Part shown: positions 11,009-41,353 of the stretch, piece by piece
Layout: each line of letters starts with the position of its first letter
How positions within the stretch are numbered: position 1 is the first letter of the stretch
Source: a virus
Taxonomy: Duplodnaviria; Heunggongvirae; Uroviricota; Caudoviricetes
Virus record (IMG/VR): IMGVR_UViG_3300048593_000385
Length of the DNA stretch: 64,000 nucleotides
Strand: one strand, 5' to 3'
Translations under genes and position numbers: made by a program
The notes under the pieces: model-generated
What the model saw: the letters and a program-made list of their open reading frames with translations, nothing else
The model's database searches: none
Told to the model about the DNA's origin: nothing

Positions 11009-11082
11009 TGGATGCTCCTTTAGGACTCGAACCTAAATTGACGGATTCAAAGTCCGATCTCTTACCTTTAGAGGAAGGAGCA
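11009..11082 (-). tRNA. tRNA-Gln (anticodon TTG)
   Basis: Hand-folded cloverleaf: acceptor TGCTCCT/AGGAGCA, D GCTC..GAGC-like, anticodon loop CTTTGAA, T-arm TTAGG-TTCGAGT-CCTAA, CCA encoded. Confidence 0.6.
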
Positions 11083-11091
11083 GCTAGTCAA

Positions 11092-11292
11092 TTACTTGCT
11101 GTCAGGTGCATGAGCTGCACGAGCTTCGCTGTGATCGCGGTCGGCTGGGTTAACAGCTACATCGGCTGGGGCAGCTTCAGTAACAGCTGTATTGGCTTCA
11201 GTAGCAGCTTCAGTAGCAGCTTCTGGTGCTTCCTGAGCACATGCAGAAGTAAGAGCAACAACAGCAGCGGCGATAAAAGTTTTGATATTCAT
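11092..11292 (-). CDS. Small secreted lipoprotein
   Basis: 66 aa with signal peptide and lipobox (VALTSAC), followed by an Ala/Glu/Thr-rich low-complexity region. SD AAGGA upstream. Confidence 0.4.
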   Translation of the reverse strand: MNIKTFIAAAVVALTSACAQEAPEAATEAATEANTAVTEAAPADVAVNPADRDHSEARAAHAPDSK

Positions 11293-11320
11293 GTGTTAAT
11301 CCTTAGAATAAAATTGAAAC

Positions 11321-11412
11321 TGGAGGAAGCGGTGGGATTCGAACCCACGGTACGCTCATCACGTACGGCAGTTTTCAAGACTGCAGGCATCAACCACTCG
11401 CCCACGCTTCCG
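11321..11412 (-). tRNA. tRNA-Ser (anticodon TGA), long variable arm
   Basis: Type II tRNA fold with anticodon loop CTTGAAA, variable arm GTACGTGATGAGCGTACC, T-arm GTGGG-TTCGAAT-CCCAC, CCA encoded. Confidence 0.6.
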
Positions 11413-14619: not shown

Positions 14620-14799
14620 GTGTGTAGTGTGTATTTGAGCCCGTTCTGTTTCGAGGTGGAACTCATACCCAATGCTAGCTGTTAGGCAGCTAGAGCAAAG
14701 GCAACGTCATTGTCGTTTGCATTTACAGTTTGTGGCACTTTGCCAGTCAATCAGTCTCGGACGCCCTATTACACGAAAATCGATATCCAGGTCACCCCC
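14620..14799 (-). ncRNA. ssrA: tmRNA (ssrA) coding piece of a permuted two-piece tmRNA; tag reading frame 14682-14720 encodes ANDNDVAFALAA
   Basis: The minus strand reads GGGGGUGACCUGGAUAUCGAUUUUCG (cf. E. coli GGGGCUGAUUCUGGAUUCGACGGG), then ..GCAAACGACAAUGACGUUGCCUUUGCUCUAGCUGCCUAA, a classic A-N-D...ALAA tag plus UAA. The 3' boundary is approximate. Confidence 0.7.
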
Positions 14800-14949
14800 A
14801 TCATAGACAAAGCACCAACTTGAAGTAACATCCAAGGTCATGACTCCTATCCAGTTACTCGTCCCCAAACATTATCTCCCTTGAGGCAAGCCATGCGGTC
14901 GGCCAGTTCCTATATTACGTACGCTGTATAGTCCCTGTTGCTTTATCTA

Positions 14950-15030
14950 TGGTGGAGGTGAGGGGAGTCGAACCCCTGTCTTTCCGCTTTTACTGTTGCC
15001 TGTCAGCAACTGATATTTTATTTAGGTATT
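14950..15030 (-). ncRNA. ssrA: tmRNA acceptor piece (T-arm + 3' acceptor strand + CCA), located upstream of the coding piece (permuted gene order)
   Basis: The minus strand reads ..GACAGGGGUUCGACUCCCCUCACCUCCACCA. The 3' acceptor strand CACCUCC pairs (one G-U) with the GGGGGUG 5' end at 14799. No matching 5' acceptor strand exists adjacent to it, so it is not a stand-alone tRNA. The 5' boundary is approximate and overlaps the 3' end of the 14990-15313 ORF. Confidence 0.6.
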
Positions 15031-15313
15031 TTACCTTCTCTTTGATCCAGTTATCAAACGGAAGGTGCATACCAGTGGAACCATTCCAGTCGGCGAATGC
15101 ATCATCATAAAAGCCAATCTTGGACTTTTTCACCTGCAGTTCGGTCAACTCGTCAGCCCACTGTTGCCACTTTTCGTCAGTGATAACTGGATCATCAAGC
15201 ACATAATACCGATACGAATGTACCAGCATTTGTGTCCGACGCTGTTTGATTTTCTCATCCAGCGTCTGGACTTCATTCACCAGATCCGCCTCGAAAAACG
15301 AATCTAGGCTCAT
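14990..15313 (-). CDS. Small protein resembling the NAD-dependent DNA ligase (LigA) N-terminal Ia domain
   Basis: 107 aa. QRRTQMLVHSYRYYVLDDPVITDEKWQQWADELTELQ resembles the LigA Ia pattern [29 protein letters not shown]. No adenylation domain follows. Confidence 0.4.
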   Translation of the reverse strand: MSLDSFFEADLVNEVQTLDEKIKQRRTQMLVHSYRYYVLDDPVITDEKWQQWADELTELQVKKSKIGFYDDAFADWNGSTGMHLPFDNWIKEKVKYLNKISVADRQQ

Positions 15314-27634: not shown

Positions 27635-28048
27635 TTAGGATCTGGATGTTTCATTGTCTACTACCTTCTTGTAACGATTGTAAGTTCCATCAGCCTCTTC
27701 GATCATGATCTCATCAAGCTCAGTATTACATGCTATAACACGCTGTTCACCTTCTGCTACAATACGAGCAGCTGATCGAAGCCTACGCAATACAGCATTG
27801 GCAATACCAAACTTATTACGATTGGTTTCAATAGCTTCTTCTACCGCATCAGCACATTGACGATACAATTCATCAGGAAGTTCCCACGAATGATCGACAG
27901 CGTTTGCAAAGTCACCGACCCGACGAAGGTATGCTTGCCCACCATCCACCGAGATAGAGCCACAGGTGCAAGTTACAAAATCGTGACGGTGCTTAGAGAC
28001 GATGAAGTCTCCGCAGCCTAGACACGTTACAGCATTCTGAATAATCAT
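27635..28048 (-). CDS. Zinc-ribbon protein
   Basis: 137 aa with CLGCGD ... CTCGS Cys pairs near the N-terminus. Confidence 0.45.
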   Translation of the reverse strand: MIIQNAVTCLGCGDFIVSKHRHDFVTCTCGSISVDGGQAYLRRVGDFANAVDHSWELPDELYRQCADAVEEAIETNRNKFGIANAVLRRLRSAARIVAEGEQRVIACNTELDEIMIEEADGTYNRYKKVVDNETSRS

Positions 28049-28287
28049 GACGAAACCTTTTGATGAACCAAGGTAATATGCTTACATTTACCGTGGAAGT
28101 TGAATCCCATACAATCACACACCCAACCAGTTGCAACCATGGTTGTGTTGTATTGTTTACCTTTTGAATTTATATAGGGCCAAGTGAAACCGACCAGATG
28201 GTGTTCTTCGCTGAAATTTATTCCAGGAAGAGCAACAGGAGTTCGATAAGGACTTACTCCAGAAACTTGCATCATATAACCTCTCAA
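28045..28287 (-). CDS. SWIM zinc-finger domain protein
   Basis: 80 aa. WVCDCMGFNFHGKCKHI fits the SWIM CxCxnCxH signature. Confidence 0.5.
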   Translation of the reverse strand: MRGYMMQVSGVSPYRTPVALPGINFSEEHHLVGFTWPYINSKGKQYNTTMVATGWVCDCMGFNFHGKCKHITLVHQKVSS

Positions 28288-30411: not shown

Positions 30412-31483
30412 TTATAATAGTCCCGCCCGATGGTTGATTTACTTCGATTAGAAATGACTTTCCATTACTATCTATGTATAATGTTTTGTTTGAATCTTTT
30501 TTGACAACAATGTCAACAGTACTACTTAGTGTCCGAACGAGCCGTAGATAATCTCCAGAAAGAATTGTAGTTATCTGTGTAGTATTATCTAGCCCAAATG
30601 TTGTTCCGCACAACTTGGTGTCTTCTCTGGTGACACAATTATCTGCTCCTAAAGCATTGTCTAAAAAGTCTTCGCCGAGGTAATTTGCATCGATTGCATT
30701 AATATCAAGATCCGAACTTGCAAGTGCATTTTCTTGTAGATCATCTTTGGCAAGGAAATCTACATCAAGTTCAGAGAGATCCAGCATGTTAGTCCTGATA
30801 TCTCTCAATTCCTCCTCAGTCTTGAATTCTTCGGCAGGTGCTACGATGAGCATATTATCAATTTGATCAAGTGACATATTCAGAATGACTGGACGAGTAG
30901 GTCTGCTGTCTGTGGTTGATACTATGGTCGCTTGAAACGCTCTGGTCAAAATGACTGAGCCAGCAGCATTTGAAACAGTAATCTCACCAACTGATCCATC
31001 TTCCTCTGGCAGAAGGATGACCAAACTCTTTCCAAAATCATCGACTGTGGTCGCAAAGTCTGTTCCACGAACAGCAATCGTGGCTGTTGGTGTTCTCAGA
31101 TTAATATTGCCTTTGTTGATTTTTCCGGATTTACCTGTCGCAAATCTGGCAGTCCCCGAAGCAAATTTGAGAACCATTTTTGATGTTGATGGATTGCCGC
31201 TGTAAACAAAATCATCAACAACAAGCCTAGAATTTTCAGTGACTTTGACGGTAGAGTCGTCTAAAAAAGTTATCTCGACTCTACCGTTTCCAGTCTGCAC
31301 TTTGTCCATCTTGGCAATAGGTAACTGAAGTCGTGAAGGAACCTTTGCAGTTTTCTTCACAACTTCGCTCGAACCTCGAGTTTGAGTTACCTTACCAATA
31401 TTAGCATGGACCACCTGCGTTGCACTGATTAATAGTAATAGTGCTGCCGTTGCTCGTGCTATCAACTTTAAGTGTGTCAACAT
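30392..31483 (-). CDS. Secreted FecR-domain protein
   Basis: 363 aa. Signal peptide (LLLLISATQVVHA). FecR-type beta-rich pattern including ATIAVRGTDFATTV (the a.v.GT.F.v hallmark). Confidence 0.6.
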   Translation of the reverse strand: MLTHLKLIARATAALLLLISATQVVHANIGKVTQTRGSSEVVKKTAKVPSRLQLPIAKMDKVQTGNGRVEITFLDDSTVKVTENSRLVVDDFVYSGNPSTSKMVLKFASGTARFATGKSGKINKGNINLRTPTATIAVRGTDFATTVDDFGKSLVILLPEEDGSVGEITVSNAAGSVILTRAFQATIVSTTDSRPTRPVILNMSLDQIDNMLIVAPAEEFKTEEELRDIRTNMLDLSELDVDFLAKDDLQENALASSDLDINAIDANYLGEDFLDNALGADNCVTREDTKLCGTTFGLDNTTQITTILSGDYLRLVRTLSSTVDIVVKKDSNKTLYIDSNGKSFLIEVNQPSGGTIINVKQSD

Positions 31484-32096
31484 TTGTTGTGCTCTGCTGA
31501 TTTATTGTTAATGTATTTGTACTGCCTGTAAGAACCAATTCAATATTCTTCCCAGCATTGCCATTCTGCAGCGTAGTAATAGTATTACCATCACCAACAA
31601 TAGTCTTAGTGTTCACCACATCATCCGCATTTATGGTGGATGTCATTGTGTTGGTGTCACCAGTGATTGCGATAGTTTGTGTAGCATTAGTGGCTGATGC
31701 CGCTGTACCCTGATTAAAGGTCAAGTCGTTTGAATCCCCAGTCACTGTAAGTGTTTTGGTGGATCCAGCCACACTACCGCTATCGCCTTCGTCATACGTC
31801 AACTTATTGTTGTCGCCAGTAACAGTAACATCCTTATCGACATTATCTGCTTGAACAATAGAGCCTTGGATAATGTTTCCATTACCTTCTTGTTTGACTG
31901 TAACTGTTTGGTTATTACCTTCAATTACTACTCGATTCTGCTCAGAACCGATGCTGTTGGTTTGACCTTTTTGGGTAATAGTAATAGTGCTACTATCACC
32001 GACCTGATCAATAAAAATCGAGTTGGTTGTTGTTTGTGCAAAACTCACCGAACTCGTCATCAGAAACATAATGAAAAGAGCTATTTTATTTTTCAT
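31401..32096 (-). CDS. Secreted curlin-repeat protein (CsgA/CsgB-like amyloid subunit)
   Basis: 231 aa. Signal peptide. Tandem degenerate repeats of the form ITQKGQTNS / VKQEGNGNIIQG / TVTGDNNKLTYDEGDSG / TVTGDSNDLTFNQG / AITGDTNTMTS / LTGSTNTLTINQ, resembling curlin repeats (S-x5-Q-x-G-x-G-N). Confidence 0.6.
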   Translation of the reverse strand: MKNKIALFIMFLMTSSVSFAQTTTNSIFIDQVGDSSTITITQKGQTNSIGSEQNRVVIEGNNQTVTVKQEGNGNIIQGSIVQADNVDKDVTVTGDNNKLTYDEGDSGSVAGSTKTLTVTGDSNDLTFNQGTAASATNATQTIAITGDTNTMTSTINADDVVNTKTIVGDGNTITTLQNGNAGKNIELVLTGSTNTLTINQQSTTNVDTLKVDSTSNGSTITINQCNAGGPC

Positions 32097-32101
32097 TACC
32101 C

Positions 32102-32920
32102 TTATTCCTTTAATGATACCGATCGATCGATATCGATCTTCGGTGCGAACTTAAAATATCCTTTCTCGATACCCTGTTTTATCAATTGTAAAACTGCTTC
32201 TTCAATCGCCATTTTGACTGCCATGGTGTTGGCTTCATTTTCGGTCATGCCTGCTTCGGCTTCCACCAATTTTGTGCCAACATCGACAAATTTAAACAGT
32301 GACAGATCTTTACCGACAGATAATACTGTTTTAGAAACTTGCACATTAAGAACAACTTCTCCAGTATTAGTGTTGACTCCTCGCAGAGAAACAACAACCT
32401 GATCTTTTCGGTAGACGACAGAGCCTCCTACACCAAGATATCTTGCTCCTGCTCCGCCTGTCTGTATGTTACTATCATACCCGATAATACCACCTTGGAT
32501 GATGAGCCCAGCGAACAGCATTGGTTCGAGTTTATTTGCACCCTCACCAAGATATTCTTCACGAGTCTGTCTAACAATCTGACGTTCTTTGGCAAGATCC
32601 TCGACACGATTTCGTTCTACAACTCTAAACCATGTTCCTCCACCTGCATCCCTCAAAGCAGAAATTAATAGTGGTGTTCCGCCTTGTGTGACTGCAGTTG
32701 ATATGCTGGCAATACCATCTTTATCTCTGCGTTGACCTGTCATATCAGGAAAGTCATAAACCGCTACTACTGCTTGTCTGTCAGGCGCAGGAAGGTTGTA
32801 TAATTCTTTGACTTGTGTCTTTACAATCTTTGCATCTTCTTTTAATTGAAGACCAACAGGTCCAGATGCCACGCAACCACACAGAAGAAAAGGTAATAAT
32901 AGAATCTTCCACATTACCAC
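32102..32920 (-). CDS. csgG: Curli production assembly/transport outer-membrane lipoprotein CsgG
   Basis: 272 aa. Lipobox LLCGC. Extensive collinearity with E. coli CsgG, for example AVVAVYDFPDMTGQ (VSVYNIQDETGQ) and GLIIQGGIIGYDSNIQTGGAGARYLGVGG (NIMVEGSIIGYESNVKSGGVGARYFGIGA). Confidence 0.9.
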   Translation of the reverse strand: MVMWKILLLPFLLCGCVASGPVGLQLKEDAKIVKTQVKELYNLPAPDRQAVVAVYDFPDMTGQRRDKDGIASISTAVTQGGTPLLISALRDAGGGTWFRVVERNRVEDLAKERQIVRQTREEYLGEGANKLEPMLFAGLIIQGGIIGYDSNIQTGGAGARYLGVGGSVVYRKDQVVVSLRGVNTNTGEVVLNVQVSKTVLSVGKDLSLFKFVDVGTKLVEAEAGMTENEANTMAVKMAIEEAVLQLIKQGIEKGYFKFAPKIDIDRSVSLKE

Positions 32921-33366
32921 TTGAATCCACTTGTTGGAACTATAATCTCAGTTTGATTGCCAGCTGCATCAATGATCACAAGTTTAATTTCTGTTTCAGT
33001 TTTTTCATACTTGATAGTGTTGCCTTCGAGTATGAATTCTCCAGCCTCTCCGCCATCTTCGCCAAACAAATTATTGGTAAGCTGTTGTGCCAGCTGAGAA
33101 TAGATACGAGACTGCAAGTTATTCAAGAAACGATTCAAAATAGAGTTTTTTTCTTCGAGAGCCTTTGCTTTCAAATCAGCTTCTATCTTGTCCTGTATAG
33201 TTTTTTTACGCAGAGTCTCTTGATTTTCAATCGTCAGCCATTGCGCTCCAGCATTGACGCCAGAGAATGAAGGATTTTTAAATTGATGGACCAGTTCACT
33301 TGCTTGCAGGTGGCTGCTTGTCAGGAGCAGCATTAGTGCCGTCACTCGTTTTAGCATCTTTCCCAT
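32914..33366 (-). CDS. csgF: Curli assembly protein CsgF-like
   Basis: 150 aa. Signal peptide, then LVHQFKNPSFSGVNAGAQWLTIENQ (E. coli CsgF: [25 protein letters not shown]). C-terminal KLVIIDAAGNQTEIIVPTSG ([30 protein letters not shown]). Confidence 0.7.
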   Translation of the reverse strand: MGKMLKRVTALMLLLTSSHLQASELVHQFKNPSFSGVNAGAQWLTIENQETLRKKTIQDKIEADLKAKALEEKNSILNRFLNNLQSRIYSQLAQQLTNNLFGEDGGEAGEFILEGNTIKYEKTETEIKLVIIDAAGNQTEIIVPTSGFKW

Positions 33367-33422: not shown

Positions 33423-33689
33423 TCAATCTTTAGATTTACTTGCATTTTTATGCTCCTCGTGAACCTGCAGCACAACGTTAACCTTTTGTTGTAACCTAAT
33501 TAGATCATTGTCCAACATTCTAATACGATCAATCAGTGCGATCAAAATTACATTTGTTTCACCAATCAGAGGCATTAATCTGTCAGTAACAAACTTATAG
33601 ATAAAGAATACAAAGTAACCCATTCCCACAGACGCTACGATCGGGAAACCATATTGTTTTATTAACTCCGCAACAACTTGTGGATCCAT
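33423..33689 (-). CDS. Small single-TM protein, paralog 1 (holin-like?)
   Basis: 88 aa with N-terminal TM (FPIVASVGMGYFVFFIYKFV) followed by a coiled-coil. Tandem paralog of the next ORF. Confidence 0.4.
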   Translation of the reverse strand: MDPQVVAELIKQYGFPIVASVGMGYFVFFIYKFVTDRLMPLIGETNVILIALIDRIRMLDNDLIRLQQKVNVVLQVHEEHKNASKSKD

Positions 33690-33976
33690 CAGTCCCTCCG
33701 AGCATCATTCTTTCCATCTGCTCGGGCGATTCTATCCAAATCAGGTCGAAGACCAAGAGCAGAACTAACTACAGCATCAACACGAATAATGTCGTGGTTC
33801 ATAGTTTTCACTCGGTTGTCCAACCCCATAATGATACCTTGCATTCCTTTGATTGCTTTCAAAACACTCTCAAGAATATAGTTGATCACAAAATACACGA
33901 AAACCCCACCGAGCAAACAAGCTGCGATGGGGAAGCCGACATCGGCGATCAGTTGAAAGATAACATCATATTGCAT
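33689..33976 (-). CDS. Small single-TM protein, paralog 2 (holin-like?)
   Basis: 95 aa. Same architecture (FPIAACLLGGVFVYFVINYI, then a coiled-coil). Confidence 0.4.
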   Translation of the reverse strand: MQYDVIFQLIADVGFPIAACLLGGVFVYFVINYILESVLKAIKGMQGIIMGLDNRVKTMNHDIIRVDAVVSSALGLRPDLDRIARADGKNDARRD

Positions 33977-34168
33977 GCATCTATTTATAATAAAAGCGAA
34001 GTGGGAGGATTTAGGTATACCTCCAAGGTCCAGTCAATTACTATCTGTAATCTCGACCCACGACTCGTTAGCTGGTTAAGCAGGAGACCAATCCCCGAGT
34101 CTACTTTATCCCCACTGACGAGGGGATTATTCAGTCACACTTCTTACTAGACCCGTCGGTCCAGATAT

Positions 34169-34245
34169 TTGGTACGGGATGACAGGCTCGAACTGCCGAC
34201 ATTCTGCGTGTAAAGCAGACGCTCTACCAACTGAGCTAATCCCGC
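34169..34245 (-). tRNA. tRNA-Val (TAC)
   Basis: Cloverleaf with anticodon loop TTTACAC, T-arm GGCAG-TTCGAGC-CTGTC, CCA encoded. Confidence 0.65.
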
Positions 34246-34246
34246 A

Positions 34247-34684
34247 TTAACTTCTTACCATATGGTCAGCTGCATGCGTTGCAGCAAATGCCTCAGGTTT
34301 AACTTTTGCATCAAGACCAGTAGTTCCTTTGACATATCCCAATGCTTCTTTTATCGCAATACTAGATTTGTGCTTAGGATCAGGATTGATGTCAAGGTGA
34401 ATTTCTAGTTTGCGATCGCCAACAACATCAATAATTTCTGTTGCTGCTTGGATCGCAAATCCAGCTTCGGTGATCATTCTTTGACGAAGGTTTCCGTAGT
34501 CGCGCATGTCAACCGAATTGTGCCAAAGCTGACAACCATGCTTCGAATCCTTGTGCAGGATGATCACGGTCGAATACTTTGCCCACCACTCCTTGTTCTT
34601 TTTATATCGAATGCTATCGGCACCAACATAAATTGTAGAAGTGTCGCTTGATTCTATAATTGCCTTCTTTGCTTCATCAAACAT
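34247..34684 (-). CDS. Hypothetical protein, possibly RNase H-like fold nuclease
   Basis: 145-aa ORF embedded in the tRNA array. Acidic residues are spaced as in RuvC/YqgF-like nucleases (IYVGADS ... ITEAGF ... EIHLDINPD), which is weak evidence. Confidence 0.3.
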   Translation of the reverse strand: MFDEAKKAIIESSDTSTIYVGADSIRYKKNKEWWAKYSTVIILHKDSKHGCQLWHNSVDMRDYGNLRQRMITEAGFAIQAATEIIDVVGDRKLEIHLDINPDPKHKSSIAIKEALGYVKGTTGLDAKVKPEAFAATHAADHMVRS

Positions 34685-34698
34685 AAATCACCTAAAAA

Positions 34699-34773
34699 CT
34701 GGCGAAGGTGCCGAGACTCGAACTCGGAACGACGGTTTTGGAGACCGTAATGATAGCCATTTCACCACACCGA
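34699..34773 (-). tRNA. tRNA-Trp (CCA), acceptor stem with two mismatches
   Basis: Anticodon arm ACGGT-CTCCAAA-ACCGT, T-arm CCGAG-TTCGAGT-CTCGG, CCA encoded. The acceptor GTCGGTG/CACCTTC has two non-pairing positions. Confidence 0.5.
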
Positions 34774-34779
34774 CAAAAA

Positions 34780-34857
<78 letters not shown>

Positions 34858-34862
34858 AATTA

Positions 34863-34944
34863 TGGAGCCCAAGACAGGATTCGAACCTGCATCTTACTTC
34901 CAGTTACCTTTGGCTCCGTTCGTAGCGGAGAGGGATACTTGGGC
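34863..34944 (-). other. Degenerate tRNA-like element (perfect acceptor stem, T-arm and CCA, but aberrant D/anticodon region)
   Basis: Acceptor GCCCAAG/CTTGGGC, T-arm GCAGG-TTCGAAT-CCTGT, CCA. The interior contains a perfect 5-bp/7-nt hairpin CTCCG-CTACGAA-CGGAG (anticodon-like ACG) but no orthodox D-arm. Confidence 0.3.
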
Positions 34945-34949
34945 AAAAG

Positions 34950-35024
34950 TGGAGCGGATGATCGGGATCGAACCGACGACGAACAGCTTGGAAGGCTGAC
35001 ACTCTACCACTGAGTTACATCCGC
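34950..35024 (-). tRNA. tRNA-Gly (TCC)
   Basis: Anticodon loop CTTCCAA, T-arm GTCGG-TTCGATC-CCGAT, CCA encoded. Confidence 0.6.
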
Positions 35025-35039
35025 ATTAAACTTATTTAG

Positions 35040-35115
35040 TGGCGAGGACGATGGGTTTCGATCCCACTACCTCCAGCGTGACAAGCTGGTGCTCTCCCGA
35101 TTGAGCTACGCCCCC
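35040..35115 (-). tRNA. tRNA-Asp (GTC)
   Basis: Anticodon arm CCAGC-TTGTCAC-GCTGG, CCA encoded. Confidence 0.65.
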
Positions 35116-35117
35116 AA

Positions 35118-35202
35118 TGGTGGGTCAGTGAGGTATCGATCCTCCCCCGAAGACGGATCGGATTTACAGTCCGACTGCCAGAGCCACTGGCTTTACCGAC
35201 CC
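35118..35202 (-). tRNA. tRNA-Tyr (GTA), long variable arm
   Basis: Anticodon arm TCGGA-CTGTAAA-TCCGA, extended variable arm, CCA encoded. Confidence 0.6.
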
Positions 35203-35208
35203 TTAAAA

Positions 35209-35291
35209 TGGTACGGGTAGAGGGACTTGAACCCCCACGCCGAAGCGCTAGTACCTAAAACTAGTGTGTCTGCCAATTCCACCATACCCGC
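35209..35291 (-). tRNA. tRNA-Leu (TAG), long variable arm
   Basis: Anticodon arm CTAGT-TTTAGGT-ACTAG, T-arm GGGGG-TTCAAGT-CCCTC, CCA encoded. Confidence 0.6.
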
Positions 35292-35380
35292 ATAGGAGTA
35301 TCTCACGTCTCGATACACGTGCTAAACATTCACGACAGACTCCATACACCATACGGTATGCGAGTAGTTTAGCTATTAAC

Positions 35381-35456
35381 TGGTGCCTTCGGAGGGAGTC
35401 GAACCCCCGACACGTGGATCTTCAATCCACTGCTCTACCAACTGAGCTACAAAGGC
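35381..35456 (-). tRNA. tRNA-Phe (GAA)
   Basis: Anticodon arm GTGGA-TTGAAGA-TCCAC, T-arm GGGGG-TTCGACT-CCCTC, CCA encoded. Confidence 0.65.
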
Positions 35457-35548
35457 AAATAAAAACTCCTTAACAAATGCGTTTCCTAGGACACAAATGT
35501 TACCGCCTGTCAGTTCAGGTCGGAACTTAAACCAGAGGTCGGAGTCAA

Positions 35549-36565
35549 TTAGATAATTATTGCTGCCGTACAATTTGCACATATCTCACGATATGCTCGT
35601 TCAACTGTAGCGGCATGGGCATCGCTGCCCCAAATTTCTCGAATAGTTTGGGTGTTAATGTTTCCAAACTTATAGTCGAAATTATAATCGTTACAACAAA
35701 GAATCACGTCACCTGCTGCATTGATATGCAGCCATTCGGTGGTTCTGTCGCCCCAATTTCCACAACCGACAACGGTGCGAGTCTCGAGTCTGCGTTCCTG
35801 CATCTCTTTGTTAGAAATATAATCAGAAAGCAAACCAGTGCGATCCATCAACGAACCTTTGCCGACATTAAACTTGGGGAACCTTCGATCAGCGATCACC
35901 CACTGTCGTTCCCACTCGCCATGTTCTCTGTCTAAGTTAATATCAAGTTCGTCAAACTTTGGACCTTTGGTTGTTCGACCATTGAAATCTTCAGTGTTAA
36001 CACCGTTGACATGGATATTGAGTTCTATAAGCCCATGCAGAGTTTCTCCTGCATAATCCAGATTCTCCATCAATTCGTCGAACCGTCTTTCAGGAAACCC
36101 AGCACGCTTTGCCCACAGTTCCTTCTCAAAAGCAGGAATGTTCAGCCCAATATGAGGAACAACATCTTTATACTCTTTGATCAGATCGACTTTTTCTTTG
36201 TTCAGGTTCATACCATTACTGAGAATAAAAGTCTGCAGCTTATATTTTCTGGCAAGTTCCAACAGCCCAGCAAAATCCTTATACAAAAGAATCTCGCTAT
36301 AATGAGTTGTCATAAACAAACTAAAGCTGCGATCAACAACACCTTCTTCTTTGTCTCGTTCTTCTACAAATTGCTTGAAGATTTTCTCGACAGTTTCCAA
36401 AGGCATTTGAACCATGCCTTCTTCTGGCTGAGGAATATATCTTACAGGGCAATACCAACATTTGGCATTACAGAATCCAAACACATCAAGCTGAAGCATT
36501 TTGATCTTCGCCTTGGCGAGTCTAGATTGCACATAAGTCATATTACTGTCGCTAGAAGATAACAT
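35549..36565 (-). CDS. Radical SAM domain protein (Cys-rich C-terminal, SPASM/twitch-like)
   Basis: 338 aa. CNAKCWYCP matches the CxxxCxxC radical-SAM cluster motif near the N-terminus. The C-terminal CGNWGD ... CCNDYNF ... CANCT gives an auxiliary cluster signature. Confidence 0.7.
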   Translation of the reverse strand: MLSSSDSNMTYVQSRLAKAKIKMLQLDVFGFCNAKCWYCPVRYIPQPEEGMVQMPLETVEKIFKQFVEERDKEEGVVDRSFSLFMTTHYSEILLYKDFAGLLELARKYKLQTFILSNGMNLNKEKVDLIKEYKDVVPHIGLNIPAFEKELWAKRAGFPERRFDELMENLDYAGETLHGLIELNIHVNGVNTEDFNGRTTKGPKFDELDINLDREHGEWERQWVIADRRFPKFNVGKGSLMDRTGLLSDYISNKEMQERRLETRTVVGCGNWGDRTTEWLHINAAGDVILCCNDYNFDYKFGNINTQTIREIWGSDAHAATVERAYREICANCTAAIII

Positions 36566-36719
36566 TTTAATTCCTTTTTATGAGCGACCACCCACAGTGT
36601 GCCTTGATCAATTACTTCCGGACGCTTGATCTTCCTAGATAGTCTTTACTGTTGCAACAGCAAGCGCTACCCTTTTCTCTATGTGGTTTCCCACGAGGTT
36701 CAGCAGAGGTGGTCTATAA

Positions 36720-36795
36720 TGGTGGAGGATAACGGGATCGAACCGTTGACCTTCTGCGTGCAAGGCAGACGCTCTCCCAGCTGAGCTAATCCCCC
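36720..36795 (-). tRNA. tRNA-Ala (TGC)
   Basis: Anticodon arm CTGCC-TTGCACG-CAG.., T-arm AACGG-TTCGATC-CCGTT, CCA encoded. Confidence 0.65.
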
Positions 36796-36944
36796 AATTC
36801 TTTAAACACAATTTTAATATTCGAAACTTTATATATCTCTGCTAAAACCGTTTCATCTGTAAATGCCGCACGATTCAAAGGTGTATCGGGCACATACATC
36901 ACACATTCTGCAGATTCGCTTCTCATATTCATATCCTAGAATAA

Positions 36945-37020
36945 TGGTGCCCTCATGAGGACTCGAACCCCAGACCCCCTGCTTACAAGGCAGGTGCTCT
37001 ACCAACTGAGCTATAAGGGC
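36945..37020 (-). tRNA. tRNA-Thr (TGT)
   Basis: Anticodon arm CCTGC-CTTGTAA-GCAGG, T-arm CTGGG-TTCGAGT-CCTCA, CCA encoded. Confidence 0.65.
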
Positions 37021-37205
37021 AGTAAACTTCTTAAATGACCACACTGGCTACTGAGATGTTGCCACGCACACTGGCAGTAATTTCGCTCTTTACGTTCCTA
37101 TCTTCCCCCGAGCGCTTGGTCGCCACAGGAACTTCCAGTGTGGTCATCTAAAAGGTCTAACAATTTCAAAGAGCAACGTATTTAGTGATTTTCTCACTAT
37201 AATTC

Positions 37206-37234
37206 ACTATAACTCGAAATAAATAATATGTCAA
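37206..37234 (-). promoter_or_regulatory. Early promoter cassette copy 9, perfect consensus (TTGACA-17-TATAGT), driving the tRNA sub-cluster
   Basis: Minus strand reads AGTGCTTGACATATTATTTATTTCGAGTTATAGTGAATTATAGTGAG. Confidence 0.6.
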
Positions 37235-37245
37235 GCACTATTTTA

Positions 37246-37323
37246 TGGTAGGGGTAGTGGGACTCGAACCCACACTGTGGGGATTTTAAGTCCCCTGACT
37301 CTAACCAATTGGCCTATACCCCC
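37246..37323 (-). tRNA. tRNA-Leu (TAA)
   Basis: Anticodon arm GGGGA-CTTAAAA-TCCCC, T-arm GTGGG-TTCGAGT-CCCAC, CCA encoded. Confidence 0.6.
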
Positions 37324-37324
37324 A

Positions 37325-37400
37325 TGGGGTGATCGACGGGTAACGATCCCGCAACTCCGGATTCACAATCCAGCATGTATCCATTAACACCTCGACCACC
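37325..37400 (-). tRNA. tRNA-His (GTG) with encoded G-1
   Basis: Anticodon arm CTGGA-TTGTGAA-TCCGG, T-arm GCGGG-ATCGTTA-CCCGT, an extra 5' G pairing opposite the discriminator (typical of bacterial tRNA-His), CCA encoded. Confidence 0.5.
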
Positions 37401-37507
37401 ATAAACTCTGTGTGGAACAGTCCCCGCTGCTCTGTATTACTGTTTGCTCAATGGGGTTACATAAGGTCGACCTCATCTCTTTTCTATGCAAACAAACCAC
37501 GCAAACT

Positions 37508-37596
37508 TGGCGGAACGTCTGGGAGTCGAACCCAGTCTACCCTTTACAGGTAGTACAGATTAGCAGTCTGCTGCATTACCGTCCTGCCCACGTTCC
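37508..37596 (-). tRNA. tRNA-Ser (GCT), long variable arm
   Basis: Acceptor GGAACGT/ACGTTCC, anticodon loop CTGCTAA, long variable arm, T-arm CTGGG-TTCGACT-CCCAG, CCA encoded. Confidence 0.55.
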
Positions 37597-37602
37597 TATG
37601 TC

Positions 37603-38400
37603 TTACTTTACGTTGACAATACCCTTGAAGTCATAAGGAACAACGATGGTGTTAACCTTGCCGTCCTTAATCGCTTCAGCAATCGTCACGATAGCAGTAG
37701 CTTCCATATACTTAGTTGCGCCAGCGTTAGCATTCAATGCAGAGATACGCTGTGCTTCAAGTTTTGCAGTAGAAACTTCTACTTCCTTACGCTTGTTTTC
37801 ATTTTGCGCTTGGACCAAAAGGTTAGCAGACTGCACGATATTGGCTGCAGGCTTGACCTGACGAACCAGAACCTGTGAGATAGAAATTGAGTTATCTAGC
37901 TTTTCAGATGCGAGGCTTGCAATAATTTCCTGACGAACAAGCTGTTCGATTTCAGCACGATTGTCTGCCATCTTCAGTGACTCGTAGCGACGAGCAACCT
38001 TGTATGCAGCATTACGACCCAACTGACGAATGTAGTTATACATCAACAGCGTATCACCTTCTTCGGTGTCAGCGTGGAAGCCACGATTCTTCTCGATGTA
38101 GAGTTCGGCAACCGAACCTGGATTGATCGAGTAGATGACTGCCATGTCGAAGTCAGCAACGGTCGAGTTATCTGACGCGAGTGGAGTCAAGTCAGCAACG
38201 TCAACAGAAACGTCCTTGGTAGGAAACGTCATAACATCGCCAAACAGTGTCTGGTTGATTGATCCTGGCATCAACTCTGTGGTTTCAATGGTCTTGTCGA
38301 TAGCACGACGAACACCTACTTCACCTGTTTCAATTCGAGTACAAGCAGCAGTCGTAGCCATGAGACCAGCGAGCACAGCAATCTTAGCAATACGATTCAT
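37603..38400 (-). CDS. SPFH/Band-7 (prohibitin/HflKC-like) domain protein with N-terminal signal-anchor
   Basis: 265 aa with an N-terminal hydrophobic segment, followed by a domain with SPFH-type periodicity and a C-terminal Ala/Gln-rich coiled-coil. Confidence 0.6.
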   Translation of the reverse strand: MNRIAKIAVLAGLMATTAACTRIETGEVGVRRAIDKTIETTELMPGSINQTLFGDVMTFPTKDVSVDVADLTPLASDNSTVADFDMAVIYSINPGSVAELYIEKNRGFHADTEEGDTLLMYNYIRQLGRNAAYKVARRYESLKMADNRAEIEQLVRQEIIASLASEKLDNSISISQVLVRQVKPAANIVQSANLLVQAQNENKRKEVEVSTAKLEAQRISALNANAGATKYMEATAIVTIAEAIKDGKVNTIVVPYDFKGIVNVK

Positions 38401-38412
38401 AATATATCTTCC

Positions 38413-38637
38413 TTAAAACAAAACGATAATAGCAAGAGCAAATAGCGACGCGATTGTCGCAATGCCCAACGAGTAACTGGCCAACTTAACAAACTCCATC
38501 TTTTCTTTTCCGGTCAGCCGACGGAAAATATCAATGCTTGTATATAAAATTATACACATTGACAAGAAAGCAAAAATCATTTTACCCATAACAATCTCCA
38601 AAAATGGTGGACGGTCTGGGGTTTGAACCCAGGACAC
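38413..38637 (-). CDS. Small membrane protein
   Basis: 74 aa with two TM segments. Confidence 0.35.
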   Translation of the reverse strand: MSWVQTPDRPPFLEIVMGKMIFAFLSMCIILYTSIDIFRRLTGKEKMEFVKLASYSLGIATIASLFALAIIVLF

Positions 38638-38680
38638 ACAGGTTAAAAGCCCGTTGCTCTACCTACTGAGCTAACCGTCC
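38605..38680 (-). tRNA. tRNA-Lys (TTT)
   Basis: Anticodon arm ACGGG-CTTTTAA-CCTGT, T-arm CTGGG-TTCAAAC-CCCAG, CCA encoded. It overlaps the predicted start of the small membrane ORF. Confidence 0.6.
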
Positions 38681-38684
38681 GAAT

Positions 38685-38760
38685 TGGTAGACCCTGTTGG
38701 ATTCGAACCAACGACCTGCGGATTAAGAGTCCGATGCTCTACCGACTGAGCTAAGGGTCC
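38685..38760 (-). tRNA. tRNA-Lys (CTT)
   Basis: Anticodon arm TCGGA-CTCTTAA-TCCGC (first pair mismatched), T-arm GTTGG-TTCGAAT-CCAAC, CCA encoded. Confidence 0.5.
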
Positions 38761-38768
38761 ATTAAACT

Positions 38769-38984
38769 TTAACCGATGTAGATCCGATGACGTTCGGAAT
38801 CTACAGGAGCGCCGACTACACGATGCTCGATGTAGTAAAAATCGATGAATTGATCGCCGTCACGAGTATACACACCGTAGGCAGTCCGTGCTTCTTCTTC
38901 AGATGCATACACGCCCAACAACAGCGAACCGTGGTGATCAAACTCACCTAACAATGCAAAAACTTCCATTTCGAATTCCTTCAT
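38769..38984 (-). CDS. Hypothetical protein
   Basis: 71-aa ORF preceded by cassette copy 10. Confidence 0.35.
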   Translation of the reverse strand: MKEFEMEVFALLGEFDHHGSLLLGVYASEEEARTAYGVYTRDGDQFIDFYYIEHRVVGAPVDSERHRIYIG

Positions 38985-38996
38985 TTCCTATTATTC

Positions 38997-39025
38997 ACTC
39001 TAACCTAGAATTAAAAATAAAGCAA
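38997..39025 (-). promoter_or_regulatory. Early promoter cassette copy 10 (TTGCTT-17-TAGAGT)
   Basis: Minus strand reads ACTTCTTGCTTTATTTTTAATTCTAGGTTAGAGTGAATAATAGGAAATGAAGG. Confidence 0.5.
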
Positions 39026-39054
39026 GAAGTATTTTCAAAAATCGTCCATCAAAC

Positions 39055-39555
39055 TTAGCACACGTACTCATAATCCTCTTTATAGTAATTTCTTACCATT
39101 TCTTCCAGATCATCGTCAAGTTCTAAGAATGTTACTGTTTTATGTAGTCTAGGTATATCAGCGCCTGTAGACCCAAATATGGTCTCTAGAAATCTAATAC
39201 TAGTTTCGTACTCAGAGAAGGGAAGAATCGTTAAATTCGGCACATTCTTATACCACTCACACTGAGGTTTAAAGAGCATTAAAGGAGGGTCGCCAGACAT
39301 TAAGCCTGTAATAATCTCTCTAGCATCCCATACTGTTCCATCCTCGTCAGTCTCATTAAAGAACTTCACAGCAGACTTAAACCGATCTACAGGGTCTCTC
39401 CAAAATGCATACACATTATCGAACTCCCCTTGTATATCTTGGTATAGTATATGAGGTTCTAATATGCTTACTCGCTCACCAACTAGAAATTCTCTGGCAG
39501 TTGTGGACCCACACTTAGGCACTCCAAGGAGTAGGTTTCTTTGATTTTTTAACAT
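39055..39555 (-). CDS. Sulfotransferase-like protein
   Basis: 166 aa. N-terminal LLLGVPKCGSTTAREFL resembles the 5'-PSB (PAPS-binding) motif PKxGTT of sulfotransferases. Confidence 0.45.
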   Translation of the reverse strand: MLKNQRNLLLGVPKCGSTTAREFLVGERVSILEPHILYQDIQGEFDNVYAFWRDPVDRFKSAVKFFNETDEDGTVWDAREIITGLMSGDPPLMLFKPQCEWYKNVPNLTILPFSEYETSIRFLETIFGSTGADIPRLHKTVTFLELDDDLEEMVRNYYKEDYEYVC

Positions 39556-39583
39556 TTGTTTTTACAAAACCTAATAAACAAAT

Positions 39584-39659
39584 TGGTACGGGTAACAGGG
39601 TTCGAACCTGTGACCTAACGATTATCGGTCGTTTGCTCTACCAGCTGAGCTATACCCGT
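39584..39659 (-). tRNA. tRNA-Ile (GAT)
   Basis: Anticodon arm AACGA-CCGATAA-TCGTT, T-arm ACAGG-TTCGAAC-CCTGT, CCA encoded. Confidence 0.6.
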
Positions 39660-39660
39660 A

Positions 39661-39737
39661 TGGTATCCCGTAGGGGATTCGAACCCCTGATCTCTGCCGT
39701 GAAAGGGCAGTGTCCTAGACCGCTAGACGAACGGGAC
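39661..39737 (-). tRNA. tRNA-Glu (TTC)
   Basis: Anticodon arm CTGCC-CTTTCAC-GGCAG, T-arm AGGGG-TTCGAAT-CCCCT, CCA encoded. Confidence 0.6.
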
Positions 39738-39738
39738 A

Positions 39739-39813
39739 TGGTACCTCTGGTTGGACTCGAGCCAACAACCTTTCGCGTATGAAGCGAATGCTCTACCGTT
39801 GAGCTACAGAGGT
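39739..39813 (-). tRNA. tRNA-Met (CAT) with A1-U72 (could be elongator Met or Ile-lysidine)
   Basis: Anticodon arm TTCGC-TTCATAC-GCGAA, T-arm GTTGG-CTCGAGT-CCAAC, CCA encoded. The 5' end overlaps the last codons of the 39793-40227 ORF. Confidence 0.55.
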
Positions 39814-40227
39814 GTTTGATACTGCATTACAAAATTCAACAGAACCATAATTGTGCCAGTAATTATTGATCATAACTCTCATATTGTGGTTTTGTTTTGC
39901 GCCAAATTCATAGATCCAAGCAAGAATCTGAGAACTGATTATTGCATCAGTTTCTCTGAATTCATAATATAATCCATCCTGCCATTCTCTAGTAGTAATA
40001 ATAACCTTTGAGATGTCAGGACGCATCCATTCTGGGAATACATCTTGCCGTAGCCAATCACAAGAATAGTCAATGCAAGGATCCTTTGGTCTATCTTCGT
40101 AGATAGTGCATCCATTGCATAAAAATTGACAGGGTCGTCCTGGGAACATATCATATCCCAGAACGCTCCCCATATGCCAACCTTCGCAGCATGCAGTGCA
40201 ATCACCGCATTGTCTGACTTTCTCCAT
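39793..40227 (-). CDS. YkgJ/UPF0153-like CxxCxxCC Fe-S/zinc-binding protein
   Basis: 144 aa. QCGDCTACCEGW matches the CxxCxxCC signature, with further Cys pairs (CQFLCNGC, CIDYSCD). Confidence 0.5.
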   Translation of the reverse strand: MEKVRQCGDCTACCEGWHMGSVLGYDMFPGRPCQFLCNGCTIYEDRPKDPCIDYSCDWLRQDVFPEWMRPDISKVIITTREWQDGLYYEFRETDAIISSQILAWIYEFGAKQNHNMRVMINNYWHNYGSVEFCNAVSNTSVAQR

Positions 40228-40234
40228 AGAAATT

Positions 40235-40813
40235 CTATGCGCTTGTTTTTAACCAAGCCAGAATGTTTTCTGGTGACGTTTCGCCGTATGGATCAGTGTC
40301 AGCATTATCGCGAGGATCAGGTTCGATGAACCATTTCTCAATCTTGCCGTTGTTCACAACACAAGCATAACGCCAAGAACGCTCGCCAAAACCAAGATTG
40401 TCTTTCTGAACCCGCATATGCATCTTGCTAGTAAACTCGCACGATCCGTCAGGAATTACCTTGACCTTCTTAATCTTTTGAGCCTTAGCCCAGCAGTTCA
40501 TTACGAATGCATCATTGACTGAGATGCAGTAGATATCCTTGATACCCAGAGCCTTAAACTCGGCGAAGCTGTTTTCAAACCCAGGAAGCTGCATTGTCGA
40601 ACAAGTCGGAGTAAATGCACCTGGAAGCGAGAACAGAACAACACGTTTGCCAGCGAACAGATCAAAGGATGTCACATCTTCCCAACGATAGGGATTGTCA
40701 CCTTCAATCGAGTTATCGCGAACACGAGTCTTGAAGACTACGCTAGGAACTACCTGAGGTAAGTTTTCGCCTTCTTCATCCCAAGAACGCTTAATCTTAA
40801 TTTTTTCTGTCAT
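40235..40813 (-). CDS. Peroxiredoxin (Prx5-like, AhpC/TSA family)
   Basis: 192 aa. VVLFSLPGAFTPTCSTMQLPGF contains the peroxidatic PGAFTPTCS motif of Prx5-type peroxiredoxins. Confidence 0.8.
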   Translation of the reverse strand: MTEKIKIKRSWDEEGENLPQVVPSVVFKTRVRDNSIEGDNPYRWEDVTSFDLFAGKRVVLFSLPGAFTPTCSTMQLPGFENSFAEFKALGIKDIYCISVNDAFVMNCWAKAQKIKKVKVIPDGSCEFTSKMHMRVQKDNLGFGERSWRYACVVNNGKIEKWFIEPDPRDNADTDPYGETSPENILAWLKTSA

Positions 40814-40835
40814 ATTTAAATCCTCAAATTAAAAA

Positions 40836-40913
40836 TGGAGTGCCGAGTGGGATTCGAACCCACGACTGGAAGGATTTGCAGTCCTTTGCATTTGACCACT
40901 CTGCCATCGACAC
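40836..40913 (-). tRNA. tRNA-Cys (GCA)
   Basis: Anticodon arm AAGGA-CTGCAAA-TCCTT, T-arm GTGGG-TTCGAAT-CCCAC, CCA encoded. Confidence 0.6.
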
Positions 40914-40917
40914 AATT

Positions 40918-40991
40918 GGTACTCCCGAAGGGATTCGAACCCCTAACCAAACCGTTATGAGCGGTCGGCTCTACCGTTGAGCTACAGGAGT
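40918..40991 (-). tRNA. tRNA-Met (CAT), second copy, A1-U72
   Basis: Anticodon arm GACCG-CTCATAA-CGGTT, T-arm AGGGG-TTCGAAT-CCCTT, CCA encoded. Confidence 0.55.
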
Positions 40992-40992
40992 A

Positions 40993-41069
40993 TGGTGCGC
41001 TGTGCAGGACTCGAACCTGCTGCCTCAAGATTAGAAGTCTCGCGCTCTATCCAGATGAGCTAACAGCGC
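40993..41069 (-). tRNA. tRNA-Arg (TCT)
   Basis: Anticodon arm CGAGA-CTTCTAA-TCTTG, T-arm GCAGG-TTCGAGT-CCTGC, CCA encoded. Confidence 0.55.
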
Positions 41070-41077
41070 AATAAACT

Positions 41078-41272
41078 TTAACTCTCCGATGTCATCAAAA
41101 AGTTGTTTGCCGTATCCATCCAGTCAAGAGCCTCAGGATCCAGCTTAACACCATTGCGATAATCATTGATGAGTTCGCAAAATGTGCGCTCGATTGCAGT
41201 ACGAGAACCGTCATTAAGAGCAGGAAATTTAAACACTAATACTTCAGTCATAATCTTTTTTCCTTTTCGCAC
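41078..41272 (-). CDS. Hypothetical protein
   Basis: 64-aa ORF between tRNA-Arg and tRNA-Asn. Confidence 0.35.
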   Translation of the reverse strand: MRKGKKIMTEVLVFKFPALNDGSRTAIERTFCELINDYRNGVKLDPEALDWMDTANNFLMTSES

Positions 41273-41278
41273 AATAGT

Positions 41279-41353
41279 TGGCTCCCTGAGAAGGATTCGA
41301 ACCTCCGACCAATTGATTAACAGTCAACTGCGCTACCGCTGCGCCATCAGGGA
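41279..41353 (-). tRNA. tRNA-Asn (GTT)
   Basis: Anticodon arm GTTGA-CTGTTAA-TCAAT, T-arm GGAGG-TTCGAAT-CCTTC, CCA encoded. Confidence 0.6.

Follow-up and report, generated by a model that had tools for sequence, protein, structure and literature searches.

Curli-type gene clusters, which encode homologs of the channel and fibre subunit from a type VIII secretion system (T8SS), have been annotated in phage genomes since 2013 and analysed in three papers. The cluster was described in pelagimyophages, for which a role in "sibling capture" was proposed (Zaragoza-Solas 2020, PMC7029224), and the CsgG/CsgF complex has been modelled and put forward as a pore for the timing of lysis (Buchholz 2022, PMC9004378). 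In the account of Wittmers 2022 (PMC9599517) the module comprises one or two genes labelled "histidine kinase" ("HK"), followed by CsgF, CsgG, CsgA/B, FecR, an optional second CsgA/B and an adenylate cyclase; it was found in podo- and myo-pelagiphages, each of the 65 GOV2.0 ocean stations yielded it, and its genes are expressed in metatranscriptomes; the same authors noted that CsgE is absent and proposed that the module came from Alphaproteobacteria. Among bacteria, csgC, csgD and csgE are lacking from all Alphaproteobacteria (Dueholm 2012). Here we describe a locus that almost certainly belongs to this known T8SS/curli auxiliary module of phages and that adds a further example of it. The locus lies in a stretch of 64,000 nucleotides of viral DNA (Caudoviricetes; IMG/VR record IMGVR_UViG_3300048593_000385), referred to below, at its full length, as the window. 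New are the presence of a one-subunit variant of the module in a T4-like lineage hitherto undescribed, which has 43% guanine plus cytosine (GC), 23 tRNA genes and an alphaproteobacterial-type transfer-messenger RNA (tmRNA), and three leads: possible control by a late promoter, a FecR/CHASE2 pair that may be an imported alphaproteobacterial sensor cassette, and doubt about the "histidine kinase" label.

When the CsgG protein of the window was compared by tblastn with 50,697 GenBank phage records, relatives were found in phage HTVC008M, in four Melnitz records and in one Salmonella phage fragment. The HTVC008M and Melnitz records have the gene order of the window, with annotations for CsgF, CsgG, a curlin-associated protein and an adenylate/guanylate cyclase; the FecR domain protein is so named in the Melnitz record only, being a "hypothetical protein" in HTVC008M. 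An initial annotation of the window, made from its letters, was aware of no lytic T4-like phage with such a module, but precedents exist in the 2013 GenBank record of HTVC008M, the Melnitz genome and the three papers; the roles it suggested (aggregation, superinfection exclusion, transport through the pore) are likewise found in PMC7029224, PMC9004378 and PMC9599517. The Salmonella record (OR851715.1, "Salmonella phage S.Kent 1-2-1") is an unannotated sequence of 1.5 kb whose CsgG is 36.5% identical to that of the window, and is probably a fragment of a host csgG gene.

The module consists of seven co-oriented genes, coding for two small membrane proteins (smA and smB), CsgF, CsgG, a curlin-repeat protein, a FecR-domain protein and a CHASE2 adenylate cyclase (Table 1). 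The three minus-strand open reading frames (ORFs) of the initial annotation lie where it had placed them (32914-33366, 150 amino acids; 32102-32920, 272 amino acids; 31401-32096, 231 amino acids), and their identities as CsgF, CsgG and curlin are borne out by Pfam families PF10614, PF03783 and PF07012, all matched above their curated cut-offs. The conserved unit is larger than the three genes then recognised, however, and adds smA, smB, the FecR-domain protein and the cyclase. The genes for the last two stand directly downstream of the curlin gene on the same strand, and each overlaps or abuts the gene before it. No Pfam or NCBIfam match to CsgE, CsgC or CsgD was found in the cluster or among its neighbours, in agreement with the initial annotation; the view that the module is minimal on that account does not hold for a seven-gene unit in which the absence is ancestral (see below). 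Searches of NCBIfam recovered the same families for the CsgF, CsgG and curlin proteins with scores far under the equivalog cut-offs, and these proteins are therefore to be seen as diverged homologs rather than orthologs of those of E. coli.

Table 1. Coordinates of the curli-type module and of other features of the window
Feature	Position	Strand	Evidence or remark
Late-promoter-type box TATAAATA	33982..33989	-	read from sequence; 5 nt upstream of smA ATG
smA, 95 aa, first gene of the module	33689..33976	-	phrog_18771 E 4e-29
smB, 88 aa, smA paralog	33423..33689	-	phrog_18771 E 2e-30; start overlaps smA stop
CsgF homolog, 150 aa, signal peptide	32914..33366	-	PF10614; phrog_35372 E 5e-35
CsgG lipoprotein channel homolog, 270 aa	32102..32914	-	PF03783; 1-nt overlap with csgF stop
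Curlin-repeat protein, 231 aa	31401..32096	-	PF07012
Secreted FecR-domain protein, 363 aa	30392..31483	-	PF04773 E 4e-12; phrog_37870 E 7e-64
CHASE2 receptor adenylate cyclase, 693 aa	28330..30411	-	PF05226 E 8e-37, PF00211 E 1e-16; phrog_35576 E 4e-225
Other TATAAATA sites (examples)	5566-5573, 5922-5929, 55255-55262, 60427-60434, 61599-61606	-, +, -, -, -	octamer scan of the window
manA RNA motif, full-length, riboswitch candidate	33994-34163	-	Rfam RF01745, 66.1 bits (gathering 55.2), E 1.3e-14
tRNA genes, n=23	34170-41353 and 11009-11411	-	21 of 23 form a loose array just upstream of the module
RNaseH-like gene within tRNA array	34247-34684		Pfam scan
Radical SAM/SPASM gene within tRNA array	35549-36565		precomputed Pfam, JGI contig
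Band_7 gene within tRNA array	37603-38400		precomputed Pfam, JGI contig
AhpC-like gene within tRNA array	40235-40813		precomputed Pfam, JGI contig
Permuted two-piece alphaproteobacterial-type tmRNA	14633-15049	-	RF04321 91.6 bits; RF01849 54.2 bits; tag peptide ANDNDVAFALAA
80-aa ORF downstream of cyclase	28045-28287	-	C-x-C...C-x-H pattern, SWIM-like by eye, no Pfam match
DUF7695 protein downstream of cyclase	27635-28048	-	E 1.5e-21

The CsgG channel, CsgF and the curlin-repeat protein

Matches to the hidden Markov models (HMMs) of CsgG and CsgF, on which the initial annotation had made its reading depend, are strong: E 1.1e-47 for CsgG against PF03783 (162 bits, curated cut-off 20.8) and E 4.2e-22 for CsgF against PF10614 (79 bits, cut-off 25.8, profile positions 3-132 of 132). 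The csgG gene can be read from a GTG at 32920, giving 272 amino acids, or from an ATG at 32914, giving the 270 amino acids of the Joint Genome Institute (JGI) gene call, and the ATG is more likely to be the true start. The translation contains the peptide IIGYDSNIQTGGAGARYLGVGG quoted in the initial annotation, and matches NCBIfam PRK15184 with E 4e-50, below the equivalog cut-off. Residues 6-265 align with residues 6-261 of the solved E. coli CsgG (3x2r/4uv3/6l7a; E 5e-47), so that the collinearity with E. coli CsgG claimed earlier extends over the full length, and the lipobox, also noted then, is in register across species: LCGC (FLLCGC) in the window, LSGC (LLSGC) in E. coli and LTGC (LLTGC) in HTVC008M. 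The residue that follows the lipid-bearing cysteine is Val, not Asp, and by the +2 rule of E. coli the phage CsgG would be sorted to the outer membrane. The protein is 45% identical to the CsgG of HTVC008M and 41-42.5% identical to that of Melnitz.

In CsgF, a hydrophobic leader judged by eye ends in LQA before SE, leaving SELVHQFKNPSFSG as the mature N-terminus. This resembles the N-terminal peptide that E. coli CsgF inserts into the CsgG barrel, with which it shares F-x-N-P-x-F-x-G. Among the three phages aligned, F29, P32, F34, S35 and G36 of the phage form of the motif, F-x-N-P-x-F-S-G, do not vary, and the match to the PDB CsgF profile reaches E 0.08 only.

The third protein carries a signal peptide that ends in SFA before QT and matches Curlin_rpt (PF07012) over two stretches (E 2e-8, 34.5 bits, cut-off 20.7), as expected of the secreted curlin-repeat protein it had been taken for. 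It is composed of 18% Thr and 12% Asn, and the autocorrelation of residue identity peaks at spacings of 11 and 22. An AlphaFold2 model built on an alignment of 30 homologs is confident, with a predicted local distance difference test score (pLDDT) of 80.2, and has 18 paired strands, arranged as about 8.5 strand-turn-strand rungs of 22-26 residues each, in line with the two-sheet beta-solenoid of solved CsgA and with the fold that the initial annotation had anticipated.

On balance we think it probable that the module works by secretion and fibre formation. Late in infection the unit would be transcribed from a T4-type late promoter, and Sec would export CsgF, the curlin protein and the FecR-domain protein. 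CsgG, once lipidated, would reach the outer membrane and form a channel into which the N-terminal peptide of CsgF is inserted, and through this channel the single curlin beta-solenoid would reach the infected cell's surface, probably to stack there as curli-like fibres or a sticky coat. The CHASE2 cyclase and its periplasmic FecR partner would meanwhile convert an extracytoplasmic cue into cyclic AMP (cAMP). Candidate pay-offs for the phage are aggregation of hosts or "sibling capture", the exclusion of competing phages, or others. If phage curli do aggregate hosts or block rival phages, this would be relevant to marine carbon flux and to phage ecology, a question already raised in the literature.

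Several observations weigh against this model. The constriction residues of E. coli CsgG, Y51, N55 and F56, are replaced in the window by K67, S72 and I73 (the loop is kept and its lining differs; HTVC008M has Q and L at the last two of these positions). C225 and C231 of the curlin protein form a C-terminal Cys-x5-Cys that is invariant in the 30 homologs, and this terminal pair could cap the solenoid and oppose polymerisation. Only 4-5 residues separate the signal peptide from the first repeat, which leaves almost no unstructured segment comparable to the N22 secretion signal of E. coli CsgA, and the single curlin-type gene of the window and its clade leaves no separate nucleator (CsgB). The late promoter, read from a match to a consensus box, is putative. 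Finally, no clumping was seen in infected cultures (Buchholz 2022, PMC9004378).

The most probable of the alternatives is that the secreted repeat protein is a non-amyloid, monomeric, end-capped beta-solenoid, such as an adhesin, a decoy or a receptor mask, exported through CsgG by a system that is T8SS-like and makes no curli. The invariant cysteines would suit such a protein. Its best structural match, on the other hand, is a solved CsgA, with the E. coli CsgA fibril subunit aligning over all 111 residues, its repeats score above the Pfam cut-off for Curlin_rpt, and its N/Q/T ladders with a regular periodicity of 11 and 22 residues are typical of curlins, so that we hold the non-amyloid alternative to be unlikely and continue to prefer the secretion and assembly of a curli-like product.

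Putative late transcription, small membrane proteins and the FecR/CHASE2 pair

The octamer TATAAATA, the T4 late-promoter consensus, has 11 copies in the window where 2.06 would be expected, an excess of about five-fold that none of 100 shuffled sequences attained. Copies elsewhere in the window are typically found 25-30 nt upstream of ORF starts, including those of baseplate genes, as would fit late promoters of T4 type in this phage. The much shorter spacing ahead of smA recurs as [T/C]ATAAATA + 5 nt + ATG in eight relatives (L016-L018, L021-L023, L037 and L038), the same box stands 6-7 nt from the ATG in three others (L015, L084 and L087), and in some relatives it directly follows a GC-rich hairpin with a run of T. 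This arrangement suggests that the module is an independent late transcription unit whose RNA starts at or near the first AUG. A scan of 27-35 kb for sigma-70 promoters and terminators gave results no better than those from shuffled sequence, and the pelagiphage transcriptome paper PMC12753301 covers no curli-carrying phage.

A manA RNA, a motif known from T4-like cyanophages and marine metagenomes, is also present, flanked by tRNA-Val on one side and the module's TATAAATA box on the other. In five relatives (L016-L018, L021 and L022) this RNA is again upstream of smA but 0.55-1.7 kb away from it, and the genes in between encode, at L018 and L021, which were the two loci inspected, a peroxiredoxin and small membrane proteins. 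We rejected a role for this RNA as a general regulator of the module in view of that distance and of the terminator that precedes the late-promoter box in at least three relatives; its adjacency to smA in the window appears, given its distance in the relatives, to be lineage-specific.

The first two genes of the unit are predicted to encode small proteins with one hydrophobic segment each (residues 13-31 of smA, 17-35 of smB) followed by a helical tail, and the two are paralogs by alignment. The smA protein is 48-49% identical to the products of the same-position genes of HTVC008M and Melnitz. Their position and number make smA and smB the probable counterparts of the "HK" genes in Wittmers 2022, and the "histidine kinase" label is unsupported for proteins of 88-95 amino acids: neither a HisKA nor a HATPase Pfam domain was found in 21 members of the smA/smB family, and no His is conserved across it. 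Nothing significant, and no Pfam holin family, came out of the Pfam scan of the same proteins, the nearest approach being a sub-threshold match to YvrJ in 5 of the 21 (E 0.044 at best, and 0.14 for the protein of the window). The two genes are upstream of csgF in most viral loci, and in one subgroup they occupy the opposite strand, a few kb downstream.

These small proteins bear on the proposal that CsgG and CsgF are a repurposed gated envelope pore for the timing or execution of lysis, comparable to a pinholin or a secretin, with the curlin protein in a secondary role (Buchholz 2022, PMC9004378). The late-promoter box directly upstream of the module, the company of two single-pass membrane proteins with a weak holin match (PHROG phrog_4898, E 0.003), the lack of a CsgE gate and the altered constriction residues would all be in keeping with such a pore. 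The holin match is not significant, however, and CsgG, as an outer-membrane lipoprotein, cannot act like a holin in depolarising the inner membrane; moreover, the curlin protein, the CsgF plug motif, the FecR-domain protein and the cyclase are conserved together under purifying selection, although a simple pore needs none of them. We thus consider a lysis pore quite unlikely, and secretion of the curlin protein remains the preferred function of the channel.

The FecR gene, read from its ATG, overlaps the curlin gene by 83 nt (31401-31483, minus strand), whereas the JGI call uses a later start and gives 340 amino acids; the long form is backed by a signal-peptide-like hydrophobic N-terminus that is conserved in all clades. 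Its product is laid out as a signal peptide, a FecR domain (residues 60-155), an acidic linker rich in D, E and L, and a C-terminal beta-rich region. The AlphaFold2 model has a pLDDT of 32, from a shallow alignment whose members are at least 76% identical. The cyclase has a first transmembrane segment at residues 6-24, a periplasmic CHASE2 domain (PF05226 over 21-340), hydrophobic segments within 321-393, a cytoplasmic class III cyclase domain at about 436-625 and a helical tail. Against PDB it matches CyaB of Pseudomonas (3r5g, E 6e-32) and CyaC of Spirulina (1wc1, E 1e-26), and its residues D446, D493, K489, T562, N569 and R573 align with catalytic positions of both. In class III cyclases the positions of D446 and D493 bind metal, those of K489 and T562 contact the substrate and, as Lys and Thr, are of the adenylate type, and those of N569 and R573 act on the transition state. 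Since these residues are aligned with those of CyaB and CyaC, the phage enzyme should be active as an adenylate cyclase. A defence cyclase of the Pycsar type was considered and rejected: the PADLOC match to PycC (E 1e-22) reflects a shared fold and is exceeded by the matches to adenylate cyclases, the enzyme has the Lys/Thr adenylate signature, and no effector gene is present.

FecR genes and CHASE2 cyclase genes are neighbours in all three of the annotated alphaproteobacterial replicons that were checked (Ensifer, Shinella and Paracoccus), whose cyclases are the best full-length matches from bacterial replicons and are 30-35% identical to that of the window. In S. meliloti the CHASE2 cyclase CyaD1 (SMc02176) adjoins the FecR-domain protein SMc02177, going by the consecutive locus tags, an arrangement like that of the window, and its output is cAMP; there, however, the FecR protein is dispensable for signal perception. 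In Burkholderia a LysM-FecR protein is encoded beside a CHASE2 histidine kinase in BiofilmReg, a biofilm-regulating operon. None of the pairs from S. meliloti, Burkholderia, Ensifer, Paracoccus and Shinella is linked to a T8SS, unlike that of the window. FecR and the CHASE2 cyclase are thus a gene pair that pre-existed in Alphaproteobacteria, and because FecR genes adjoin CHASE2 cyclases or sensors in bacteria we read the phage unit as the likely result of joining a T8SS to a FecR/CHASE2 sensor pair, both of alphaproteobacterial origin. On an Ensifer plasmid (L110) and a Shinella plasmid (L112), two of the three replicons checked, the pair stands beside an export system for bacteriocins of the NHLP type, and it may be that such pairs generally accompany export systems.

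A further proposal makes the channel an ungated conduit for small molecules or nutrients, such as cofactors or siderophores, with FecR as an iron-related regulator (Zaragoza-Solas 2020, PMC7029224; Wittmers 2022, PMC9599517). The absence of CsgE and the association of the name FecR with ferric citrate signalling speak for it. The FecR-domain protein of the window has a signal peptide, though, and no anti-sigma or transmembrane part, its bacterial relatives adjoin CHASE2 sensors and not iron transporters, and import would leave a secreted curlin-repeat protein and a CsgF cap unexplained. We judge the conduit very improbable, and read the FecR-domain protein, from its domain layout and gene neighbourhood, as a putative periplasmic partner of the CHASE2 sensor rather than an iron regulator.

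A more far-reaching reading can be imagined, in which the module is a phage "sense-and-secrete" circuit rather than a copy of bacterial curli: a late and possibly leaderless transcript would supply a CsgG/CsgF channel without a gate, for the export of one Cys-capped solenoid, while FecR and CHASE2 would convey the condition of the envelope, or of the secreted product, as cAMP, so as to reprogram the dying host or time lysis, and the manA RNA, which in this phage abuts the module, might add control by a metabolite. As a whole this circuit is speculative, and we give it little credence.

Conservation, origin and phage context of the module

A scan of IMG/VR, which the initial annotation had recommended as a search for other carriers, found 330 viral contigs with a relative of CsgG. 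The best 80 of these 330 viral loci were surveyed with HMMs built from the module proteins. CsgF, CsgG, curlin, FecR and cyclase genes are all present in the same order in 69 of the 80, most of the others being cut by contig ends, and a second curlin-type gene, absent from the window and its clade, is present in 37. Members of the clade have CsgG proteins 70-89% identical to that of the window and a GC content of 0.40-0.47. For all seven genes, wherever dS was estimable, the ratio of nonsynonymous to synonymous substitution rates (dN/dS) against these relatives is 0.03-0.20, a rough figure in that dS exceeds 0.9 throughout, and all seven genes are under purifying selection.

The closest cellular relatives of the CsgG protein, in a search of a species-representative collection of genomes, are alphaproteobacterial (42-48% identity). 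High-GC Alphaproteobacteria (Mesorhizobium, Devosia, Rhizobium, Nitratireductor and Dinoroseobacter) carry CsgF-CsgG genes and, in most loci, large curlin-repeat genes; no FecR, cyclase or smA/smB gene was found within 8 kb of these genuine high-GC csg loci, and none of the genuine high-GC bacterial loci offers a source for the full seven-gene combination. The lack of CsgC, CsgD and CsgE is an inherited alphaproteobacterial state and not a reduction by the phage, because Alphaproteobacteria as a whole lack these genes (Dueholm 2012) and the nearest CsgG relatives are alphaproteobacterial. The whole module in phage gene order does occur on six contigs in bacterial bins (L083, L084, L087, L089, L092 and L105; metagenome-assembled genomes of Rhodobacterales, Sphingobacteriales and Rhodobacteraceae) with a GC content of 0.35-0.41, and in view of this low GC and of their gene order they are most simply explained as phage contigs that were probably mis-binned with bacteria. 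The best explanation of the distribution is that the module is carried by marine or aquatic T4-like phages and podo-phages and has an alphaproteobacterial ancestry. On one further contig (L113; GCA_902725375.1, CACUVW010000001.1, 346,700 bp) the same one-curlin module is situated beside genes for a family B DNA polymerase and an ART-PolyVal domain protein; the contig is a phage genome of far greater size or else a concatenated assembly.

That the region of the window is itself bacterial contamination or a chimeric assembly, which the initial annotation had named as a risk, and which the typically bacterial nature of curli genes and the matches in bins labelled bacterial might suggest, has a negligible probability in the face of a flat GC content across the curli region and its junctions (0.41-0.43), flanks made up of phage genes on the same strand and a phage tRNA array, an identical CsgF protein on 4 contigs of 50-200 kb, including the 160,657-bp JGI contig Ga0453708_0000020 (sample 3300044716) with the gene layout of the window, the same module layout on more than 20 independent IMG/VR contigs of the window's clade, the cluster in two cultured phage genomes, and the low GC and phage gene order of the module-bearing "bacterial" bins.

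Outside the module, the window encodes gp5-, gp26-, gp48- and gp53-like baseplate and hub proteins of T4 type, a gp2-like end protector, a ribonucleotide reductase and a primase, a context that agrees with the T4-like phage of the initial annotation. The gp26-like protein is 42% identical to its counterpart in cyanophage S-RIM8, and one tail protein shares 38% identity with its counterpart in Caulobacter phage Cr30; the lineage is T4-like, with some structural genes nearer to those of cyanophages and of Cr30 than to those of pelagimyophages. Searches for near-identical DNA with 28-34 kb and 1-25 kb of the window among the 50,697 GenBank phage records returned no match or tRNA-sized matches only, so that the phage itself is undescribed there. 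The alphaproteobacterial-type tmRNA of the window hints at an alphaproteobacterial host or donor, and a tmRNA is also present in Melnitz.

The module beside described curli and phage systems

Compared with the curli of E. coli and Salmonella (csgBAC-csgDEFG), the window shares a CsgG lipoprotein, the N-terminal motif of CsgF and a Sec-dependent solenoid of curlin repeats, but it has no CsgE, CsgC or CsgD, no distinguishable CsgB and no leader like N22, and its curlin protein has 8-9 repeats where the E. coli subunit has 5. The csg loci of Alphaproteobacteria (Mesorhizobium, Devosia and Rhizobium) are like the window in their adjacent CsgF-CsgG genes, their curlin-repeat genes and their lack of csgC, csgD and csgE, and differ from it in having very large multi-repeat curlin genes and a GC content of 0.57-0.71. 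Among phages, the same module is found in pelagipodophages of the HTVC023P type and in GOV2.0 contigs (PMC9599517), the former being podoviruses of SAR11 whereas the window has a genome of the T4-like myovirus type; from freshwater myophages of SAR11 it has so far been reported missing. In HTVC008M (KC465899; Zhao 2013), a T4-like phage of the Kyanoviridae, the gene order is that of the seven genes of the window, with protein identities of 32-48%. The two loci differ in an extra large curlin-like gene that HTVC008M has between FecR and cyclase, in their GC content (0.34 in HTVC008M, 0.43 in the window) and in their flanks, which are genes for a single-stranded DNA-binding protein and the tail tape measure in HTVC008M and the tRNA array and DUF7695 gene in the window. 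Melnitz (MZ577097; Buchholz 2022) has a second curlin-repeat gene and infects a methylotroph of betaproteobacterial type (OM43), and the order and content of its module are otherwise the same as those of the window.

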